From a virus (taxonomy: Duplodnaviria > Caudoviricetes), in the IMG/VR virus record IMGVR_UViG_3300049914_000047, positions 1-40,353 of that record: 40,353 nucleotides of DNA. One strand, written 5' to 3'. The position numbers were made by a program, and so were the translations under genes. Shown piece after piece: positions 1 through 22,289 of this stretch (position 1 is the first letter of the stretch; every line of letters begins with the position of its first letter). Below the pieces are notes generated by a model that was not told the origin of the DNA, did no database searches, and worked only from the letters and a program-made list of their open reading frames with translations.

Positions 1-126
1 AAATACTCGGGAGAATACTGGAACGGGCATAGAGAGTGGACATTGATAGCCGCAGATGGACAAGTATATGCGACAGGTAGCGTAACATTACAGTTACCCG
101 ACACCATAAGGGCAACGTCCAACTAA
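1..126 (+). CDS. 3' end of a hypothetical cassette protein (partial)
   Basis: Frame 1 is open (KYSGEYWNG...TSN*) and stops on the TAA of AACTAAC, like the other cassette genes. Confidence 0.6.
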   Translation, partial: KYSGEYWNGHREWTLIAADGQVYATGSVTLQLPDTIRATSN

Positions 127-327
127 CGATTTGTTGCTAAGCTGACTTGCCATAACAAAAGGAGATAGATATGGATTTTAATAAAGAGTTGTTTGATGAA
201 TTTGTGAAAGAGTTTGTAGATAACGACGCAGGTGTAATTAGAAACCAATACCCTGATGGGATTTTTAATTGGTTTAGAAATAAACAAAACTTGGGCGGGC
301 AAGTTCAGCTTGAGCAACGTGTTAGCC
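121..327 (-). repeat. attC-like site 1 (207 bp)
   Basis: AACTAAC-GATTT-GTTGCTAAGCTGACTTGCC ... GGCAAG[T]TCAGCTT[G]AGCAAC-GT-GTTAGCC. Confidence 0.85.
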
Positions 328-482
328 AGCAACTTGCATCTGTGATTACACACTTACGGGATAGTTTTGAAAAAGCCCAAAAGTTATTAGACGACAAAGA
401 AATAGGAATGCAATTGGCTTGCACCGAATTATTCATAGCAAATTCAGAGGCAAGAGAGATGTTAAGCAAGTTGTCGGGCTAA
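171..482 (+). CDS. Hypothetical cassette protein, starts in attC1 loop
   Basis: AGGAG SD before the ATG; stop lies within GGCTAAC. Confidence 0.75.
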   Translation: MDFNKELFDEFVKEFVDNDAGVIRNQYPDGIFNWFRNKQNLGGQVQLEQRVSQQLASVITHLRDSFEKAQKLLDDKEIGMQLACTELFIANSEAREMLSKLSG

Positions 483-606
483 CGGATGGCAACTAAGCTG
501 CCATACACAAAATTTGAATAAGGAATAATACCGATGCTAATAGACATATCAAAGATACGGAAATTTGTAGTATGCTCATTTGGTCAGGTTGAGTTGCTTG
601 TTAGGC
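477..606 (-). repeat. attC-like site 2 (130 bp)
   Basis: GGCTAAC-GGATG-GCAACTAAGCTGCCA ... TGG[T]CAGGTT[G]AGTTGC-TT-GTTAGGC. Confidence 0.85.
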
Positions 607-779
607 GGCAAAAATTATTCTTCAACCTATACCGAAAATACAGATGCCTTCGAGCGCCGCAATTTATTATCAGAAAAGTGTTATGGAAAGTAACCGACCC
701 AAAAACATTGCTACAGACGGACGATTATCATATACGATTAGCAATAGCTGTCGAGTGTATGAAATTTTTGTCCGCCTAA
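534..779 (+). CDS. Hypothetical cassette protein, starts in attC2 loop
   Basis: AAGGA upstream; stop lies within GCCTAAC. Confidence 0.65.
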   Translation: MLIDISKIRKFVVCSFGQVELLVRRQKLFFNLYRKYRCLRAPQFIIRKVLWKVTDPKTLLQTDDYHIRLAIAVECMKFLSA

Positions 780-900
780 CGGTGGTGCTAAGTGGTGCAT
801 GTAGAAAGTTGAATAATGACAAATGCCGAATCTAAGAAAATACAACCAATACGGAATAACGAAGAAAGCTCTAAGCATCCACTTGAGCACTTGGTTAGGC
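774..900 (-). repeat. attC-like site 3 (127 bp)
   Basis: GCCTAAC-GGTG-GTGCTAAGTGGTGC ... GCA[T]CCACTT[G]AGCAC-TTG-GTTAGGC. Confidence 0.9.
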
Positions 901-1628
901 GGCACGGCAGTCTTTTTTCTGGTATTGGTGGCTTTGATCTTGCGGCACAATGGATAGGATGGGAAAATGTTTTTCAAGTTGAGATTGATGAATTTGCACA
1001 AAAGGTTTTAGAAAAGAATTTCCCTAATGCAAAACGATACCGAGACATACGAGAATTTGATGGAACACAATACCGAGGAAACATTGGAATTCTTTCCGGT
1101 GGATTTCCCTGTCAGCCATTTAGCATGGCAGGACAAAGGAAGGGTGAAAAGGATAACCGTTTCCTCTGGGGAGAAATGCTTAGAGTTATTAGAGAAACAC
1201 AGCCCCAATTTATTGTTGGCGAAAATGTTAATGGTATTACAAACTTGGACAATGGCAGAACACTTGAGAAGATACTACTTAGTTTGGAAGATGAGGGCTA
1301 TTTTTCGGAAATATTTCGTATTCCAGCTTGTGCCATTGGAGCTTGGCATAAAAGGGAACGAATATGGATATGTGCCCACGCCAAGAGCTTCAGATGGAGC
1401 ATTCAGAGGAAAGATGAAATTAGAGACACACAAGAAACCTTCACCAATAGGAGATATAAATTTGAATCACTGGATGGCGATCACATTGGACAGCTTAGTA
1501 ACTGCGGAACACTGCGAATTGATAATGGGATACCCAATAGGGTGGACAGAATTAAAGCATTAGGAAATGCAATTGTGCCGCAAGTGGTTTTTGAAATATT
1601 CAAAGCCATAGAAGCCGTGTCCGCCTAA
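816..1628 (+). CDS. dcm: DNA (cytosine-5)-methyltransferase
   Basis: Motifs I (LFSGIGG), IV (GGFPCQPFS), VI (ENV), VIII (HKRERIW) and X (RIKALGNAIV). Confidence 0.95.
   Translation: MTNAESKKIQPIRNNEESSKHPLEHLVRRHGSLFSGIGGFDLAAQWIGWENVFQVEIDEFAQKVLEKNFPNAKRYRDIREFDGTQYRGNIGILSGGFPCQPFSMAGQRKGEKDNRFLWGEMLRVIRETQPQFIVGENVNGITNLDNGRTLEKILLSLEDEGYFSEIFRIPACAIGAWHKRERIWICAHAKSFRWSIQRKDEIRDTQETFTNRRYKFESLDGDHIGQLSNCGTLRIDNGIPNRVDRIKALGNAIVPQVVFEIFKAIEAVSA
1027..1563 (+). CDS. Overlapping alternative-frame ORF, putative small (beta) subunit of the C5-MTase; true start uncertain
   Basis: Carries PTPRASD and a motif IX-like HCELIMGYPIGWT that the main frame lacks. Confidence 0.6.
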   Translation: MQNDTETYENLMEHNTEETLEFFPVDFPVSHLAWQDKGRVKRITVSSGEKCLELLEKHSPNLLLAKMLMVLQTWTMAEHLRRYYLVWKMRAIFRKYFVFQLVPLELGIKGNEYGYVPTPRASDGAFRGKMKLETHKKPSPIGDINLNHWMAITLDSLVTAEHCELIMGYPIGWTELKH

Positions 1629-1750
1629 CGGCAAGCATAAATTGCGCACGATGAAAAGCTGAATAATATTAAATGACGAATCCAAAAACACATAAACAAT
1701 ACGGCGTATTGCACTTGGCTGGTTGCGTCAATTTGATGCACTGGTTAGGC
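1623..1750 (-). repeat. attC-like site 4 (128 bp)
   Basis: GCCTAAC-GGCAA-GCATAAATTGCGCA ... TGCG[T]CAATTT[G]ATGC-ACTG-GTTAGGC. Confidence 0.9.
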
Positions 1751-1774
1751 AGTGCGCCACATCGGGAGAATTGA

Positions 1775-1960
1775 GTGGAATTTACATCAAGTATTCCTTT
1801 GTGCGAATTTTGTGGACAGTACCACCCGCACCAAACTTGCTGGAGAATAAAAGAAATTGAATACCACCAAAACGGAATGATAAAACGAGTGGTACTACAT
1901 GAACCAAAAACTTTAATTTTAACAGAAGAAACAAAGAAAGAGGGTGGCGCATCTGCCTAA
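1775..1960 (+). CDS. Small putative Zn-binding cassette protein
   Basis: CxxC..H....C motif; GGGAG upstream of the GTG; stop lies within GCCTAAC. Confidence 0.7.
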   Translation: MEFTSSIPLCEFCGQYHPHQTCWRIKEIEYHQNGMIKRVVLHEPKTLILTEETKKEGGASA

Positions 1961-2324
1961 CGGTAGCCCTAAGCTGCGGCAACGAAATGCTTGAATGATA
2001 TTATAATAAGGTTTGTTGTGTTTGCATCTAATTTTAATCGCCTTGTGGCGAGGAGAAATTATGGAAGAAACGAAATGCACCAATTGTGGAAAGATGTCGG
2101 TTTTGACATATAGTAATTGGAAACAAAGGAATAAGATTACCGATAAAATGGAAACTATAATAAAAAAGACAGAAAATTTGTGCCCAATGTGTTTTAAGAA
2201 AAGAACCGGAATGAACGGAATATTTTCAAAATAGCCACAAGGCGAAACATCAAATGCGCGAACACAACAAACACAACGAATAATGCACAATGCCCATCCC
2301 GTCAACTTGAGGGCATGGTTAGGC
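1955..2324 (-). repeat. attC-like site 5 (370 bp, gene inside loop)
   Basis: GCCTAAC-GGTA-GCCCTAAGCTGCGG ... CCG[T]CAACTT[G]AGGGC-ATG-GTTAGGC. Confidence 0.8.
2061..2234 (+). CDS. Small Zn-ribbon-like protein nested in attC5 loop
   Basis: AGGAG SD then ATG at 2061; CTNC...CPMC. Confidence 0.7.
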   Translation: MEETKCTNCGKMSVLTYSNWKQRNKITDKMETIIKKTENLCPMCFKKRTGMNGIFSK

Positions 2325-2352
2325 AGTGCGCCACTTTTAGAAAGGATGGTAT

Positions 2353-2541
2353 ATGCCCAAGATAAAGTTTGCTAAAAAAGATGTAGATAAAGGATATGGA
2401 ATCATTTTACATGCAGGGTGCGTGGTCTATACTGGACTTGACGACACATATATAATACCAGAGGAAAGTTTGGGAAAGTTGAGAATTGAAAAAATAGATT
2501 TTACAATATTGCCTATTAATCATGACGGCGCATCTGCCTAA
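2353..2541 (+). CDS. Hypothetical cassette protein
   Basis: AAAGGA SD; stop lies within GCCTAAC. Confidence 0.7.
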   Translation: MPKIKFAKKDVDKGYGIILHAGCVVYTGLDDTYIIPEESLGKLRIEKIDFTILPINHDGASA

Positions 2542-2664
2542 CGGTTGCGGCTAAGATGCGAATAACTAAACTTTAAATTTAACGAAAGGACGATGCAATG
2601 AAAAATACAAAGAAACGGATTAGCCACAAACGCTCAAATCGTCATCTTGAGCCGCTGGTTAGCC
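2536..2664 (-). repeat. attC-like site 6 (129 bp)
   Basis: GCCTAAC-GGTT-GCGGCTAAGATGCGA ... TCG[T]CATCTT[G]AGCCGC-TG-GTTAGCC. Confidence 0.9.
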
Positions 2665-2915
2665 AGCCGCCGCATAGCATTACATTGATGTTGACAAGCG
2701 AACAAGAGAAGCAATTAACACCTCTATTCAAATATGCAATGAAAAGTTACGATAAGGGACAATACGGAATAATATTAGCGCAACCCAAGCGACCCTCGAT
2801 TTTCGGGACACCACTTGAGCCGATGCTTGTATGCGCGTTTGTTGAAGAACCGTATGCCAGTAAAATGATAAAACTGAGCCGAAAAGCGGGAACACTTGTG
2901 CGGCGGTCTGGCTAA
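2598..2915 (+). CDS. Hypothetical cassette protein, starts in attC6 loop
   Basis: AAAGGA SD; stop lies within GGCTAAC. Confidence 0.7.
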   Translation: MKNTKKRISHKRSNRHLEPLVSQPPHSITLMLTSEQEKQLTPLFKYAMKSYDKGQYGIILAQPKRPSIFGTPLEPMLVCAFVEEPYASKMIKLSRKAGTLVRRSG

Positions 2916-3036
2916 CGGTGGGCGTAAGCTGTGCCGAACGATAACCAGAAGAACGTAATGACTCGATTCTATAAAAAATATAACAAACGGAATTTTGCAA
3001 TGAGCTATGGGCATCAGCTTGACGCCATGGTTGTAT
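2910..3036 (-). repeat. attC-like site 7 (127 bp)
   Basis: GGCTAAC-GGTG-GGCGTAAGCTGTGCC ... GGCA[T]CAGCTT[G]ACGCC-ATG-GTTGTAT. Confidence 0.85.
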
Positions 3037-3071
3037 TGCATTTAATCTATTCTTGAAAGGCGGTTGCACCA

Positions 3072-3464
3072 ATGGAAAACAAGTTTAAGGTGTGGGATAA
3101 AAAATTGAATGTGATGTGGCAGGAAATAGAACTGACAAAACTATTAAGCTATCTGATATTCCAGATTATGCCGAACGCGGACGCTTACCTTGCATTGAAA
3201 GACCACTTTACCGAAATGGTATGGCTAAGATGGGTCGGACTGAAAGACAAAACCGGAACAGAGATATACGAGGGCGACATACTTGATATAGGTAAGGCAA
3301 CACCGGCAACATTGGAATGGTGCGAGGGTGCGTATGAATTGCTCATAGAAGGAAAATTTGAATGTCGTTTATGTGTCCAAGACATTAAGGAAGTCAAAAT
3401 TATCGGTAACATATACGCCAACCCAGAGCTTTTGGTGCAACCGCCTGTATCAAATGTTAAATGA
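3072..3464 (+). CDS. YopX family protein
   Basis: KFKVWDK ... GLKDKTGTEIYEGDIL ... IIGNIYANPELL signature. Confidence 0.9.
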   Translation: MENKFKVWDKKLNVMWQEIELTKLLSYLIFQIMPNADAYLALKDHFTEMVWLRWVGLKDKTGTEIYEGDILDIGKATPATLEWCEGAYELLIEGKFECRLCVQDIKEVKIIGNIYANPELLVQPPVSNVK

Positions 3465-3466
3465 CA

Positions 3467-3485
3467 ATACAACTACTGATTAGAC
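3467..3485 (-). other. attI/attG-like simple recombination site closing the array
   Basis: The - strand reads GTCTAAT-CAGTA-GTTGTAT (inverse-core-like box, 5-nt spacer, core). No attC stem follows it. Confidence 0.5.
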
Positions 3486-3500
3486 TGCGGGAATAAATAT

Positions 3501-3866
3501 ATGCCTAAAATAAAACGTAATGAGCAGTTTGTCAAAATAGAGAAAAAGATATGCACTTATTTATTGGAACAGAAAAAATCACCGAGCAAAGAACCGATTC
3601 ACTTTGACGAATTTAAGGATTTAAAAGAATTAACACGACAATTGGCAACTGAAAAGGGAATGTCTTTGTCTGAATGGTTCAGATGGCTTAATTATCGTTA
3701 TTTATCGGTACACGGATATTTGCCAATTGAGATTGAAAAGAGAAAGATTGAATATTTAAGTGATGAAGATTTAGAGATTAATAAGACAACTATCATGTAT
3801 CATAATAAATCAAAGTCAAACACAAGTTGTCAACAGAAAGGAATAGAGAATGGTAATATATCTTAG
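3501..3866 (+). CDS. Hypothetical protein
   Basis: 121-aa ORF with no recognisable motif. Confidence 0.6.
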   Translation: MPKIKRNEQFVKIEKKICTYLLEQKKSPSKEPIHFDEFKDLKELTRQLATEKGMSLSEWFRWLNYRYLSVHGYLPIEIEKRKIEYLSDEDLEINKTTIMYHNKSKSNTSCQQKGIENGNIS

Positions 3867-4452
3867 CGGTAAATATTCAGGCGAGATTATAGAAAACATC
3901 GACGTAGCCCGTAGGATTGCTATTGAATTGTGGGAACAAGGATTTAGTGTCTTGACCCCACATCTCAATACATATCATTTTGAAACAGATTGTAAATGCA
4001 CCTATGAGCAGTACATACAGGGCGATCTTGAAATGCTGTCAAGATGTGACGTTATAGTTATGCTTCAGGGCTGGAATCAATCCAAAGGTGCGACCAAAGA
4101 GAGAGAGTTTGCGAAGTACTTAGGTATGCCAATATATTATTATCCAGAGATACCCACAAAGCGGGATATGATGTCCAGCGACCAAGAGGCACACTTAGCG
4201 CAAATCATTAACAAATTCATTCGTAGAGTGATAGCCAAATATTTGGCGGGGCAAAAGGAACATGGCGGGAATCTTTTCGACAAGCCGAACCTTCCAATGT
4301 TACTTGAAGAAGTCCTTGATCAGGTAGTGTACGGTTTCACACTTGAAGAACAAATTAAACGAGCAGTATCACTTATGTTTGAAGATGATGAAGCTATGAA
4401 TATTCTTATTGCTGGCAATCCACAAGGGAAGAAATTAAATGATAGAAATTAA
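3850..4452 (+). CDS. DUF4406/DUF1937-like (nucleoside deoxyribosyltransferase-like) domain fused to a C-terminal helical domain
   Basis: IYLSGKYSG ... DLEMLSRCDVIVMLQGWNQSKGATKEREFA. Confidence 0.75.
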   Translation: MVIYLSGKYSGEIIENIDVARRIAIELWEQGFSVLTPHLNTYHFETDCKCTYEQYIQGDLEMLSRCDVIVMLQGWNQSKGATKEREFAKYLGMPIYYYPEIPTKRDMMSSDQEAHLAQIINKFIRRVIAKYLAGQKEHGGNLFDKPNLPMLLEEVLDQVVYGFTLEEQIKRAVSLMFEDDEAMNILIAGNPQGKKLNDRN

Positions 4453-4945: not shown

Positions 4946-5047
4946 ATGACATGGTATGAATGGGTGGGTATAGTGCTTATTGTGAGTGTATATGTAATTG
5001 CTTTTGCATTGTTATTATTAGGGATAAATCATGATAGAAAACCATAA
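4946..5047 (+). CDS. Small single-TM peptide (33 aa)
   Basis: AAAGGTGA SD; MTWYEWVGIVLIVSVYVIAFALLLLG... Confidence 0.45.
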   Translation: MTWYEWVGIVLIVSVYVIAFALLLLGINHDRKP

Positions 5048-5894
5048 ATTCGAGCACCGTGTTAGACTACAACATAAACTGATAAATGACCATTTCCAAA
5101 ATTATAAACCTTATGCAATACCCAAAGCCCAATTAGTTATTGCAGACATACCCTATAATGTAGGTAAGAATGCCTACGGCTCTAATCCGAGTTGGTATGT
5201 GGACGGTGACAATAAAAACGGTGAGTCCGAGCTTGCGGGAACAGAATTTTTTGATACAGATAAGGATTTCAAAATATCAGAGTTCCTTCATTTCTGCTCA
5301 ACAATGTTAGTAAAAGAACCAAAGGAAACAGGAAAAGCCCCATGTATGATTGTGTTTTGCGAATTTGAGGCACAGTTTGAGCTGATAGGAAAAGCAAAAG
5401 CATACGGATTAAACAATTATATAAACCTCGTATTTAGAAAAAACTTTTCTGCGCAAGTTCTAAAAGCCAATATGCGAATAGTGGGGAATTGCGAGTATGG
5501 ACTTGTTCTCTTTCGTGGCAAGTTGCCAAAGTTCAACAATGGGGGGAAAATGGTTTTCAACTGCTTCGACGTTGAGCGGGATACCAAAACGCCGAAGATT
5601 CATCCTACTCAGAAAAGTGTTTCACTATTGGAAAGACTGATAAAACTATTCACAGACGAGGGGGAGGTTATTATCGATCCGGTAGCCGGAAGTGGCACTT
5701 CAATAATCGCCGCGATGAATTGTAACAGAAGTGCATACGGATTTGAGATTAAGAAAAACTTTTTTAACCCCGCAAACGCGTGGATAGAAGAGGAGAAATT
5801 GGCAAAAGAGGAAAGAAAGACTTTAGGCTGGGCAAAGACAAAAGCCAGCAAGGAACATCCAATATTTGATTTTAAAGTTACAGTCCCATCGTAG
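5031..5894 (+). CDS. DNA N6-adenine/N4-cytosine methyltransferase (beta-type order)
   Basis: Catalytic DIPY, then HPTQK, then SAM-binding DPVAGSG(T/S) and GFEI. Confidence 0.92.
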   Translation: MIENHKFEHRVRLQHKLINDHFQNYKPYAIPKAQLVIADIPYNVGKNAYGSNPSWYVDGDNKNGESELAGTEFFDTDKDFKISEFLHFCSTMLVKEPKETGKAPCMIVFCEFEAQFELIGKAKAYGLNNYINLVFRKNFSAQVLKANMRIVGNCEYGLVLFRGKLPKFNNGGKMVFNCFDVERDTKTPKIHPTQKSVSLLERLIKLFTDEGEVIIDPVAGSGTSIIAAMNCNRSAYGFEIKKNFFNPANAWIEEEKLAKEERKTLGWAKTKASKEHPIFDFKVTVPS

Positions 5895-8819: not shown

Positions 8820-10281
8820 TAGCGAAATATTAGAATTAGAGACATTGGTCAGAGATAGAGAGATAAGTAGGGGTATATCCGATTTCTGGACATTCTGCAA
8901 ACTCAAAGCACCTAATTACTTCAGCGAGGACAGGGAGCATTTAAAGACTTTGGCTATAACATTGCAGAATTTCTCAGAAGGAAGGCTAATCAAGGCAGAT
9001 GGCATGTCCTACAAAAAGTTAATGATTAACATTCCGCCCAGACATGGCAAGTCAAGGAGTCTGATTAATTTCTGTCAGTGGAAATTAGGCAAAAATCAAA
9101 ACGAGAGAATCATAGAATGTTCTTATAACGATGATGTAGCCGGAGACTTTGCCAAGTACACACGGGACGGGATAGAAGAGAAGCGAATAGACGAAGAGCA
9201 TTTTGTCTTTTCAGATTTCTTTCCAAAGATTAAACTTAAATTCGGATCTCAATCATATTACAAATGGGCATTAGAAGGGCAGCACTTCAATTATTTGGGA
9301 GCTGGTATAGGCGGATCGATCACAGGCAAGGGTGGGAGTATTTTAATTATAGACGATCCGGTAAAGAACGAAGAAGAGGCTTTTAACGAGGACAGGCTCG
9401 ATAAGATTTGGCAATGGTATATAGGGACATTTCTTTCAAGAGGTGATACAGACACGGGCGAGAACCCGTTAGAAATTATTGTAATGACCCGGTGGAGTGA
9501 TAAAGATCTGTGTGGCAGAATTTTAGCATCAGACGAAGCCAAGGACTGGTATCAGATCAAGATGAAAGCCTATGATGATAAGACAGATACTATGCTTTGT
9601 GGTAAGGCCTTGAGCAAAGAAAGGTATTTAGAACTTCAGAAGAAAATGATGCCTGAAGTATTTTGGGCTAATTATCTGCAAGAGACAGTAGAAATCAGGG
9701 GATTACTTTATAAAACATTTAAAACCTACGATAATCTTCCTCAAGATAAAGATAAAAGGTTATTACTTGAGTCTATCCAGAACTATACAGATACGGCAGA
9801 TGAGGGTGACGACTTCTTATGCTCAATCAATTATGGAGTATATCAAGGCGAGGCCTATATCTTAGACGTGATTTATACTAAGGAAGGTATGGAGATAACC
9901 GAACCACTGACTGCCAAATTCTTATTTGAAGGTAAGGTCAATGAGGCACGGATAGAGTCTAATAATGGCGGGCGGGGATTCGCACGTAATGTTAAAAGAA
10001 TATTAGAAGAAACGCACAAATCTACCAAAACAGTAATTAAATGGTTTCATCAATCAGAGAATAAAAGAGCGCGTATCCTGAGTAACTCATCCTTTGTCCA
10101 AGAGCATGTTTATTTTCCCGTGAACTGGAAAGATAAATGGCCTGAGTACTTCAAGGCCATGTCAACCTATCTTAAAGAAGGAAAAAATAAACATGACGAT
10201 GCGCAGGATGCAATAACAGGCATGGCGGAGATGGTCTCTAAGTCTGAAGGATTTTACGATATGAGTAAGAGGGCAGCATGA
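8809..10281 (+). CDS. terL: Terminase large subunit
   Basis: Walker A (PPRHGKS), Walker B (LIIDDPVK), nuclease DTAD...HDDAQDA. Confidence 0.97.
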   Translation: MLNDSEILELETLVRDREISRGISDFWTFCKLKAPNYFSEDREHLKTLAITLQNFSEGRLIKADGMSYKKLMINIPPRHGKSRSLINFCQWKLGKNQNERIIECSYNDDVAGDFAKYTRDGIEEKRIDEEHFVFSDFFPKIKLKFGSQSYYKWALEGQHFNYLGAGIGGSITGKGGSILIIDDPVKNEEEAFNEDRLDKIWQWYIGTFLSRGDTDTGENPLEIIVMTRWSDKDLCGRILASDEAKDWYQIKMKAYDDKTDTMLCGKALSKERYLELQKKMMPEVFWANYLQETVEIRGLLYKTFKTYDNLPQDKDKRLLLESIQNYTDTADEGDDFLCSINYGVYQGEAYILDVIYTKEGMEITEPLTAKFLFEGKVNEARIESNNGGRGFARNVKRILEETHKSTKTVIKWFHQSENKRARILSNSSFVQEHVYFPVNWKDKWPEYFKAMSTYLKEGKNKHDDAQDAITGMAEMVSKSEGFYDMSKRAA

Positions 10282-19313: not shown

Positions 19314-22289
19314 ATGAAACGAATATTAATGCTGTTTTTATTTACTTCGATTACTTTTGGTCAGATTCAAAAACCTGCTTATTTATGGTATAGCACTGCA
19401 AAGGGGGATTCGATTAGTATTATCCCCTCTACTGGAAAACTTGTACAGACTTATATATTTGGATTAACCGATACAGTCGCCGCCCATCGTACCGCCTTAG
19501 ATTTAAAACTCACAGGAAGCGGAACGATAAATTATCTATCCAAATATACAGCGACAGGATTAGTGCAGGGAAATTCTCAGTTACATGAAGATGCTGATGG
19601 AAATGTGTTTGGTTCTAATCTCGATAAGAGGTTGACGGATTGGCGAAATAGTGATTATATGCTCGCTAATCATTTTGGACTTACCTATCAAGACGAAAAC
19701 TCTCAGATAGTTACATTATCTGTGAATACAATTTCTGGATTAGTTTATGCAAGAGGATATTTATTTGCTTGTTCTTACGGTTCTGGAAAAATAATTAGAT
19801 TCAATAATTTAAACGATTTAACTGATTACACGGTTGTTTCTCCGGCTGTAGGATCATTTGCGGATATCATATATGTTCCATCGGTCGGCAAGTTATATGC
19901 CTTGAGTCTGACAACCGGGATACGAGTCACAGAAATTGATCCTATTACTTTGGACAATTCTACGGTAATTAGTAACGGTCAATACACTCAGGGAGAATCT
20001 TTAACCTCTGACGGTAATTATCTCTACGTCCTCACATATAGTTGTGTCGTTTTAAAATATTCGCTATCGGATTTTAGTAGAACTGGAACTGTTCCGATTC
20101 GGGATGTTGATAATGGTCATGCTCTAAGATATGATGGAACAAGTTTATACGCTACAGGCACAACATACCCCGGTTGGATTGCCAAAGTTGACACAGCTTT
20201 ATCGGTGATATCTCAAATGAATTTTACTTCAGGAGATAATAATCCAACCGACGACTTATGTTCGGTAGGTGATTATATATTTGTAGGATTAGAAAGCTCT
20301 AATGGAGTTATTTTAAGAATAAAAAAATCCGATCTATCTATTACCCGACTTGCGACTACAATGGCTTCTTCCTGTTATGGCACTTTTTTTGATGGTAGAT
20401 ATGTTTGGGGATTATATGCTACAACTGCAAATAAATTGGTTCGCATAGACCCGACAAATCTCGAATGTGTCATATATAATTTCTTATACAATTCAAGTTT
20501 TGTGAGTCCAAATGAAATGTTTACCGATGGTCAAAGATTTTATGTAACCGGATTCACCTCACCTGCTAAGATAGCCAGATTCAGCGTACCCCACTTTGAT
20601 GGTAATAGATATTTCTTAGATACCTTGACAAATTATTATATGTCATTCGTTGGCACAAAGGTTGGGATTAAAACTTCTGCTCCTGATTCAATATTCACGG
20701 TAACAGGTGGCGCTAATATTAGCGGGGGATTAAAAGTAACTCAAAACGCTACAATAGGCGGGACTTTAGGTGTAACAGGCACGACAACACTTGCTACAGC
20801 ATTGACAGGAACAATAAGGGCTGCAAGCGGGGTACTAAGTGCAACAGCAAGTGATACGGTAGGACTTGGCGCGGCACTTGGACTAAAGGCTAATCTTGCC
20901 ACACCAATTTTCACGGGAAAGATAACAACAGATTCTATCACTTCTAATGGTTCAGGATATTTTGGCGGGGTAATTACTAATACTGCAAGAGTAGGGATCA
21001 AGAATGGACTTTTAGCAAACGTAGTCGAAAAATATAATTCTCGCGGTCTATTAATTTCTTCCGAAGATAGCGTCGGCACGCCTACTTACAAAGGTTTAGG
21101 TGCTGGTACAGTTCGTTCTTCTTCGGCTGGACTTTTTTCTTCAACTGTTTCAGACACGGTAGGACTCGGTGTCGCATTATATAATAAACTTTCTGGGAGT
21201 GGAACGGCGAATACTATTTCCAAATACACCGCAGGATTGACATTGGGCAATAGTTTGATAACTGACGATGGAACTAATGTTGGCGTTGGTTTCGTTTCTG
21301 GAAGAACGTTAGGTATTTATGCAGCATCAAATACAACCTTTCAAGTAACAAATTCTGCATCAGGAACGGCTTCAACGGATGGATTTACAATTCAACAATC
21401 AGGTGCTAATACGTATTTGGATAACAGGGAAGATGGGGCACTCGCATTTCAAACAAATAATACACAATGGTTGACTCTTTCTTCGACCGGAACACTTGGA
21501 CTTGGAATGGGAGCATCTGCAACAAGTAGATTTGCTATCCAGAATGGACTTCTCGCCAATGTCGTAGAATGGTATAATTCACGCGGATTGCCTTTGGGAG
21601 TTTTAGACAGTATATCAAACTTAGGATTAGGTTCTACGATACCTCTGCATAGAGTGGTAGGCGTTGAATCTTATACAACAAATCTTAACGCTTTTAATTT
21701 TGTCGATAGCGACGTGAATTTAAGCAGACTCACAGTAGCGCAAGCAACAGATACCTCTTCGGTTAATTTAGCATTTTCTGGGGCAGGTTCACCTATTTTT
21801 AAAATCATAGGGAAAACGGGGAATAAGATTCTTGTTGCAGATAGTGCAGGCATTAAAGGCGATGCTTTAGAAATTCCTCACTTGACTAAAAAAGCAGCAT
21901 CGGCAAATATAAGAAATTCTCATGATGCTGAGGCATCATGCGCCCTTGGTGGATATACAAAAGTTAAAACAATCGTAATCACAAATGGACTTGTTGGACA
22001 AGTAAGGGTTTTATTCGATTTGAAAATAGCAGTTACTACAGGCTCTCCAACCGCGTATGGTAGGGTTTATAAAAATGGTGTAGCGCTTGGAACGGAACAA
22101 ACAAATGCGACAACTGACTATGTAACCAAATCCGAGGATATAACTCAGACATGGAATCCGGGCGATCTGTGCCAATTATATCTGCATTACGGCGGGGCTG
22201 GCACTGGAACTGCATGGTGTCAAAATTTCAGGCTTGCATACGACGATTCTCCGACGGTTACAGTCAGTTCAAGCAACACAACACCGTAA
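19314..22289 (+). CDS. Large tail fibre/adhesin with a beta-propeller-like region and N-terminal signal peptide
   Basis: ATG at 19314; DG.Y.Y propeller-type repeats; VGI-type fibre repeats. Confidence 0.7.
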   Translation: MKRILMLFLFTSITFGQIQKPAYLWYSTAKGDSISIIPSTGKLVQTYIFGLTDTVAAHRTALDLKLTGSGTINYLSKYTATGLVQGNSQLHEDADGNVFGSNLDKRLTDWRNSDYMLANHFGLTYQDENSQIVTLSVNTISGLVYARGYLFACSYGSGKIIRFNNLNDLTDYTVVSPAVGSFADIIYVPSVGKLYALSLTTGIRVTEIDPITLDNSTVISNGQYTQGESLTSDGNYLYVLTYSCVVLKYSLSDFSRTGTVPIRDVDNGHALRYDGTSLYATGTTYPGWIAKVDTALSVISQMNFTSGDNNPTDDLCSVGDYIFVGLESSNGVILRIKKSDLSITRLATTMASSCYGTFFDGRYVWGLYATTANKLVRIDPTNLECVIYNFLYNSSFVSPNEMFTDGQRFYVTGFTSPAKIARFSVPHFDGNRYFLDTLTNYYMSFVGTKVGIKTSAPDSIFTVTGGANISGGLKVTQNATIGGTLGVTGTTTLATALTGTIRAASGVLSATASDTVGLGAALGLKANLATPIFTGKITTDSITSNGSGYFGGVITNTARVGIKNGLLANVVEKYNSRGLLISSEDSVGTPTYKGLGAGTVRSSSAGLFSSTVSDTVGLGVALYNKLSGSGTANTISKYTAGLTLGNSLITDDGTNVGVGFVSGRTLGIYAASNTTFQVTNSASGTASTDGFTIQQSGANTYLDNREDGALAFQTNNTQWLTLSSTGTLGLGMGASATSRFAIQNGLLANVVEWYNSRGLPLGVLDSISNLGLGSTIPLHRVVGVESYTTNLNAFNFVDSDVNLSRLTVAQATDTSSVNLAFSGAGSPIFKIIGKTGNKILVADSAGIKGDALEIPHLTKKAASANIRNSHDAEASCALGGYTKVKTIVITNGLVGQVRVLFDLKIAVTTGSPTAYGRVYKNGVALGTEQTNATTDYVTKSEDITQTWNPGDLCQLYLHYGGAGTGTAWCQNFRLAYDDSPTVTVSSSNTTP

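Follow-up and report, generated by a model that had tools for sequence, protein, structure and literature searches.

Which enzyme assembles a phage-borne array that resembles integron cassettes, has no integrase beside it and carries its genes in the orientation opposite to that of classical cassettes? The question is raised by a 40,353-nt stretch of Caudoviricetes DNA (IMG/VR record IMGVR_UViG_3300049914_000047, positions 1 to 40,353, here called the window), in which a sequence-only reading had noticed seven hairpins resembling the attC sites of integrons. The window derives from a sediment phage and is a linear tailed-phage contig rated 58% complete, with its terminase, portal and head genes from 8.8 kb onward. 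We propose that the array probably consists of inverted integron-type cassettes, likely assembled by recombination of single-strand hairpins at AA/C (the slash marks the crossover), and that a short tyrosine recombinase encoded by a phage, for instance that of a related phage, G001, likely acts on it in trans.

Seven hairpins with attC geometry and inverted genes

A structural scanner, written to the geometry of the attC bottom strand and run over the whole window, recovered exactly seven attC-type sites, all on the + strand and at the coordinates of the hairpins first noticed (121-327, 477-606, 774-900, 1623-1750, 1955-2324, 2536-2664, and 2910-3036), and none in the rest of the window. At a score of at least 14, no site appeared in 40 shuffles of the whole window or in 500 shuffles of its first 3.6 kb. 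All seven sites have AAC and GTT cores, and the unpaired G and T described from the sequence are present in 7/7 as extrahelical G16 and T23, with 6 bp between them, on the arm opposite AAC. The covariation claimed for the arms is also borne out: 10 of 15 columns show two to four pair types, 98 of 105 arm cells are Watson-Crick, and the arms of a site pair with each other at 14.0 of 15 positions, against 8.3 when arms are swapped. The R'' box is the reverse complement of the next R' box at all seven sites, as had been stated, the partner of the seventh being a half-site at 3467-3473; four of these matches fit the next R' only, and the three that also fit their own R' are uninformative. Five sites measure 127-130 nt and the other two 207 and 370 nt, for a published attC range of 57-141 bp; the central spacer and loop are present. 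With seven sites the array classifies as a CALIN (cluster of attC sites lacking an integron integrase, that is, at least two attC sites within 4 kb and no intI nearby), and the claim that the window holds no integrase stands, since neither a tyrosine recombinase, a PF00589 domain nor a tblastn relic was found in this 58%-complete contig.

A duplex-energy scan for hairpins returned nothing, and the geometry scanner was used instead, while an attC covariance model (59 positions, built from four short sites) matched class 1 sites and neither the long sites of the window nor those of L108 and L222. A promoter scan of the window was at chance (11 against 11.8). We also considered that the array might travel with the terminase, and rejected this, because among 31 loci with relatives of the terminase (42-60% identity) not one contained more than a single site.

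The bulges place the bottom-strand pattern on the coding strand at all seven sites, which confirms the inverted gene polarity first proposed. In control integrons the arrangement is the opposite: with the same scanner, the bottom strand lies opposite the genes in phage TJE1, whose sites were bench-tested, and at the one Vibrio integron site found, and class 1 sites found with the small covariance model share this classical polarity; 20 bacterial intI regions, scanned as a further control, gave three lone sites and no array. Free folding energy consistently favours neither strand, so the strand call rests on the bulges. That the strand was misread, that whole classical cassettes entered backwards, or that the array is an assembly artefact is largely refuted and in our view hardly credible. 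The window does start at an assembly fork, and top-strand recombination can insert cassettes backwards (PMC5027507; citations by PMC number refer to the available portions of each paper), but the scanner gives the classical polarity on the controls, the crossovers are the AAC opposite the bulged arm, ORFs (open reading frames) of at least 50 aa starting with ATG occur on the opposite strand in 2/7 cassettes only, the methyltransferase and YopX genes lie on the + strand, and the first junction is bridged by a 451-nt contig in an independent run from another study (X2).

ORF starts fall in the loops of all seven sites, and seven ORFs, namely the one entering the window and those of cassettes 1-6, end on the TAA of TAA/C. 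These units differ from classical cassettes, which have the gene on the top strand and upstream of its own attC: all genes are on the bottom strand and lie downstream of the hairpin or inside it. A cassette is therefore built with the hairpin first, the gene after it and the stop on the crossover, and comprises the C of one crossover, its own hairpin with a start codon in the loop, the gene body, and the AA of the next crossover. Because the cassette usually ends with the gene's own TAA, any cassette can follow any other with no gene broken. The features of the array are the following.

1-126, + strand: 3' end of cassette 0, the eighth, with an ORF that ends on the first crossover's TAA; base for base the same in G001/L144
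121-327, + strand: attC-type site 1, 207 nt, bottom strand on +; crossover after 126
171-482, + strand: cassette 1 gene, 103 aa, no family match; starts in the site 1 loop, stops at TAA/C
477-606, + strand: attC-type site 2; crossover after 482
534-779, + strand: cassette 2 gene, 81 aa; loop start, stop at TAA/C
774-900, + strand: attC-type site 3; crossover after 779
816-1628, + strand: cassette 3 gene, C5-cytosine DNA methyltransferase, 270 aa (PF00145, 1e-49; TIGR00675 above cut-off); stop at TAA/C
1623-1750, + strand: attC-type site 4; crossover after 1628
1673-1960, + strand: cassette 4, a loop-started 33-aa ORF (stop 1772-1774), then an abutting in-frame 61-aa ORF (1775-1960) ending at TAA/C
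1955-2324, + strand: attC-type site 5, 370 nt, with a gene within its loop; crossover after 1960
2061-2234, + strand: Cys-rich 57-aa gene nested in the site 5 loop, between inverted flanks (2011-2049 and 2234-2272)
2353-2541, + strand: cassette 5 body gene, 62 aa; stop at TAA/C
2536-2664, + strand: attC-type site 6; crossover after 2541
2598-2915, + strand: cassette 6 gene, 105 aa; loop start, stop at TAA/C
2910-3036, + strand: attC-type site 7; crossover after 2915; a 32-aa ORF (2958-3056) begins in the loop
3030-3473, + strand: cassette 7 body, with a YopX-family gene at 3072-3464 (PF09643, 2e-16)
3467-3485, + strand: terminal half-site, with R' box, crossover after 3472, 5-nt spacer and L-box-like heptamer; no integrase behind it

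The half-site that closes the array is possibly an attI or a secondary site, judging from its boxes. The protein of cassette 0 has a full-length homologue, P0119 (101 aa, 93% identical). Of the cargo named from the sequence, the methyltransferase and YopX are upheld by the family matches given above; the supposed zinc-finger cassette exists as a Cys-rich gene of 57 aa, but this lies inside the site 5 loop and has no family match above cut-off. The first ~28 residues of the methyltransferase are encoded by the attC loop and arm. In another frame, a 178-aa ORF (1027-1563, +) overlaps the methyltransferase gene, matches the DNA methyltransferase family phrog_1008 (3.5e-14) and ends in sequence resembling C5-methyltransferase motif IX, which suggests that the pair may form a two-subunit enzyme encoded by overlapping frames, like M.EcoHK31I. 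A second, non-cassette DNA methyltransferase at 5031-5894 (+) has 78% DNA identity to one in L086. The in-frame TGA (1772-1777) that splits the 33-aa and 61-aa ORFs of cassette 4 would indicate either a broken longer gene or a coupled leader.

With the inverted orientation, a single early-to-middle phage transcript could carry both the cassettes and a recombinase and, provided that replication proceeds in the direction of transcription, the recombining strand would lie on the lagging-strand template. Such a placement would matter for loops too long for cruciform extrusion; a review states that sites with long loops fold chiefly as single strands, and do so best on the template of the lagging strand (PMC8946536). 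The GC skew of the + strand is positive, which is weakly consistent with this role. Loops of 225-603 nt holding whole genes or long gene starts were also seen in other phages (L091 6465-7067 and 7292-7732; L132 4162-4386), and in L046 an RtcB-family RNA ligase gene (3381-4390) starts at the R'' box of the last hairpin.

Crossovers in related phages

The genome G001 (L144) was found by a search for relatives of the recombinase of L108, which adjoins a similar array. It equals the window for 127 nt and then diverges at AA/C, between positions 126 and 127, into an attI-like site and a 290-aa tyrosine recombinase in place of site 1. G001 has its own terminase and portal, and the window is rejoined at 19482-19978 with 91% identity, the last 116 nt being identical. 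From the fork at the crossover and the rejoining, window and G001 are thus alternative versions of one interval, which spans 19 kb in the former and 13 kb in the latter, with a crossover as its left edge and a homologous zone as its right edge. Array and head module may have changed hands jointly, in a single attI x attC event involving two phage genomes. In run X1, a possible source, a 745-nt contig ends at the fork and both branches are present as contigs; in run X2 the G001 recombinase gene is largely covered, but coverage does not extend to its attI junction.

In L132, a relative of the YopX gene has the same 3' flank, followed after the point corresponding to 3472 by a full and different attC site where the window has the half-site. 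Among cultured Polaribacter phages, Freya_6 and Freya_10 share a left part of 99% identity, part company directly behind an AAC and become alike again at an AAC that precedes the gene of a 270-aa recombinase of the short type; their isolation paper takes these genes as integrases of a temperate lifestyle, and the words integron and cassette are absent from its main text (PMC8776804). Breakpoints at AA/C in relatives, foreseen by the sequence-only reading, are therefore seen in three independent comparisons (G001 at 126/127, L132 at 3472/3473, and Freya_6 with Freya_10), and the acquisition and shuffling of cassettes by AA/C exchange is supported, as far as aligned genomes can tell. A fourth pair, L064 and L082, differs by one 335-nt cassette, the boundary of which can slide over 46 identical nt; these arrays fail the strict scanner and were read by eye and alignment. 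The contigs L143, L189, L235, and L252 all begin exactly at the TAAC of the attI-like site before the recombinase, as would be expected if the upstream cassette varies.

The hairpins could instead be RNA-level elements, acting as translation or processing signals, with genes swapped by homologous recombination between like hairpins. They do lie on the transcribed-sense strand, most of them hold start codons with purine-rich leaders, and the sliding boundary between L064 and L082 would suit such an exchange. However, in G001, L132, and the Freya phages the breakpoints are at AAC with unrelated sequence directly after, the cores match the next site and not their own, and the bulges occupy the positions of attC; in addition, an Rfam search of the window gave 0 matches, and it holds 0 terminator-like sites against 3.3 expected. 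In our view this explanation is very unlikely, and we retain exchange at AA/C between inverted cassettes.

How such cassettes gain their genes may be reflected in inverted repeats. The YopX gene has imperfect inverted flanks of ~43 nt with a perfect 15-nt core (3058-3072 and 3432-3446), and the gene nested in site 5 has the flanks listed above, which in L132 surround another gene. Both sets of flanks surround other genes in other contigs, with one switch right after the ATG, and these swapped genes are a hint, from sequence comparison, that cassettes may be loaded in this way. Searches for the flank patterns matched 0 and 1 contigs, respectively. A pattern scan of viral contigs gave 95 stretches, most of them without support, and of 126 loci scanned, five had at least two sites and eight had one. 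Two joints in X1 (331 to 3012 and 3074 to 3433), with undefined sequence in between, we take to be other cassettes rather than excisions.

The short recombinase and an extra base

The recombinase of G001, P0104 (290 aa), has PF13495 and PF00589 domains, and its catalytic residues R135, K160, H222, R225, H248, and Y257 are all present and invariant. Sequence and predicted fold alike give VchIntIA (2A3V) as its best PDB match, but P0104 is without the insertion of IntI (I2 region), with gaps of 24 and 10 residues relative to Vibrio IntI; P0001 scores 144 bits against a TIGR02249 cut-off of 265. L108, L140, and L091 combine G16/T23 sites, an attI-like site and a recombinase of the same family as in G001, and in complete platforms the attI-like site lies 35-60 nt before a co-oriented recombinase gene at the end of the array. 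In L091, a recombinase with an internal deletion (10004-10264) stands right after the intact array and its attI-like site.

We surveyed 223 recombinase loci, reduced to 186 distinct ones, of which 114 have the shortest catalytic domain (105 viral) and 67 are longer relatives (all on metagenome contigs); the metagenome scan covered 2 of 64 parts. The general hairpin scanner used here is noisy below a score of 15, and at the survey threshold it misses sites of the window type. Hairpins number 248 in 315 kb upstream of the 114 short recombinases, compared with 5 in 407 kb downstream, and 0 upstream of the 67 longer relatives, and an attI-like motif is found at 84/110 and 2/67 loci, respectively. 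At the short-recombinase loci, the core of the last hairpin equals that of attI in 36/65 cases (permutation mean 3.1), R'' matches the next R' in 109 of 147 pairs and its own R' in 13, and 112 cassette ORFs are on the recombinase strand compared with 4 on the opposite one, 30 cassettes being ORF-less. In a tree (a quick version of 53 rows, 10 sampled from each large group), the array-linked short enzymes, the L108/G001 type among them, cluster together with support 96 and separately from IntI (100). A search for the short enzyme in 1 of 64 parts of a genome collection returned only distant relatives (24-40%) and no host. Separately, virus Rctr41k (L454) has a full-length IntI-like gene inside a phage operon (4680-5678), with at most one weak site and no array by the scanner.

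A further property links the window to cassettes of other contigs. Beyond the 7-nt core, the ends of each window cassette pair at 8-10 of 10 positions, and in 7/7 cassettes the R' side has an additional base at position 10 (six T and one A; chance ~0.003 each). The extra base recurs in 9/10 cassettes of L091, L108, L140, and L132, and in 9/19 over all eight contigs scored, partners being taken as the best match, and none of five classical control cassettes reaches 8/10 outer pairs. The rule also predicts the unseen start of cassette 0, which reads LVGVA only if the extra base is left out, and LVGVA is present in P0119. In the large short-recombinase group, 107/107 cassettes carry a T at R'-side position 11, which faces a G in 79 of them. 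The formation of the outer stem requires the two ends of a single cassette to meet, as they do in an excised circle. Excised cassettes would fold as dumbbells, with ends pairing over ~16 bp around a conserved extra base; to an enzyme that lacks the IntI insertion, this base may mark the strand.

The cassettes may also be real and inverted, and moved by a canonical IntI of the host or of another phage, with the short recombinase marking the platform or serving prophage integration. The presence of G16 and T23 in 7/7 sites and the attI1-like spacing of the terminal site favour this, as do the recombination of five of six phage attC sites by IntI1 (PMC9892861), the description of the insertion as essential (PMC8138268, PMC4889954), and the occurrence of canonical IntI in 25/61 genomes from the phylum of G008 and in 2/61 from the class of G006. 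Nevertheless, we consider it unlikely: the short enzyme lies 35-60 nt past the last crossover of the array in L108, L140, L091, G001, and 84 of 110 testable loci of the large group, the array-linked short enzymes form a clade apart from IntI, and the outer extra base joins the window cassettes to those of L091, L108, L140, and L132. The suggestion of a host IntI or of a recombinase outside the window holds in its second part, given the enzyme of G001; the evidence favours such a phage enzyme over a host IntI.

Our proposal that a short recombinase serves the array in trans has several points to contend with. Residues of the I2 region of IntI engage the bulged bases (PMC4792948, PMC5027507, PMC8138268), the window sites carry the very G and T said to be engaged by this insertion, and Cury et al. 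(2016) judged enzymes without it not to be IntI (PMC4889954). An unpaired G occurs in only 3/248 hairpins beside the largest short-recombinase group, so the link between G16/T23 sites and the short enzyme rests on L108, L140, L091, and the G001 fork; the strict scanner found no site in 76/80 and 62/63 recombinase loci. The spacing of the terminal half-site (5 nt) is that of attI1 in L455, whereas short-enzyme sites have 4 nt, and two of the five classical controls have perfect 12-nt cores, so that an extended stem alone is not unique. The thresholds and the attI motif of the survey were set after viewing the data, and its loci are related rather than independent. The 42% of the genome outside the contig could hold another integrase. 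In X1 the upstream contig common to both branches has a depth of 36.5 and so falls short of their sum (31.5 + 20.9), a deficit that bears on how much upstream sequence the two phages share, and no circular cassette junctions were seen in the contigs, to which that examination was confined.

Weighing both sides, service in trans by the short recombinase remains to us the probable explanation. A more far-reaching version, which we advance only tentatively, is that phages run a self-contained analogue of the integron, in which a sister of IntI without I2 recombines folded single-stranded sites and recognizes an unpaired T immediately beyond the core, either in place of the classical bulges or in addition to them; it would shuffle inverted cassettes built by phages, the inverted flanks being cassettes in the making, and attI x attC events would start module swaps between co-infecting genomes.

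Relation to known systems

The array offers a site-specific route by which accessory regions of phage genomes become mosaic, and its cassettes, which start in the hairpin and stop on the crossover, are designed differently from bacterial ones. Should these sites be substrates of the short enzyme, hairpin recombination would not require the insertion regarded as defining IntI, and where IntI and cassettes came from could be put to the test. The value of this locus lies in canonical attC geometry being joined, at a single base, to the insert-less enzyme of a sister phage, and the cultured Polaribacter phages provide a bench system. In the literature we found no description of inverted cargo polarity or of cassette arrays run by insert-less enzymes; our coverage is incomplete, and the annotation file or figures of Qi et al. 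could show polarity.

Phage CALINs and their recombination by IntI1 have been published (Qi et al. 2023, PMC9892861), and these are likewise clusters of attC sites in phages, without an integrase and with methyltransferase cargo. The polarity of TJE1 is classical, whereas that of the window is inverted, and genes on the bottom strand, starts in loops and a phage enzyme without the insertion are not described in the available portions of that paper. One inverted site is already in its data set, P12002L_attC1, which as cloned sits on the coding strand and is the one phage site that IntI1 did not recombine (PMC9892861). Between 29 and 42 kb of P12002L (L483), we observed several hairpins between coding-strand genes beyond the published ones, none of the G16/T23 type.

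With integrons (IntI1; VchIntIA, 2A3V; PMC5027507) the system shares R and L boxes, the AAC crossover, G16 and T23 six bp apart, cores specific to each cassette, and a recombinase on the bottom strand behind attI. In contrast, the cargo of the window is on the bottom strand, starts in the hairpin and stops on the crossover, two of its sites, at 207 and 370 nt, are longer than the 57-141 bp of attC, its outer stem has an extra base, and the candidate enzyme, without the IntI insertion, is below the TIGR02249 cut-off (P0001). In integrons with an inverted integrase (Treponema type; PMC4889954, PMC13323075), integrase and cassette genes are co-oriented, as they are here, but there intI is flipped relative to attC, whereas here the recombinase is in its usual place and the genes are flipped. 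Among the 'Integron-like' simple tyrosine recombinases (PMC8138268), no cassette arrays are assigned to insertion-less members in the available portions of that work. The system described here is a variant of the integron cassette system and would operate as an integron does: its sites pass as attC by geometry, its cassettes depart from the classical polarity, and P0104 is not an IntI by the insertion criterion.

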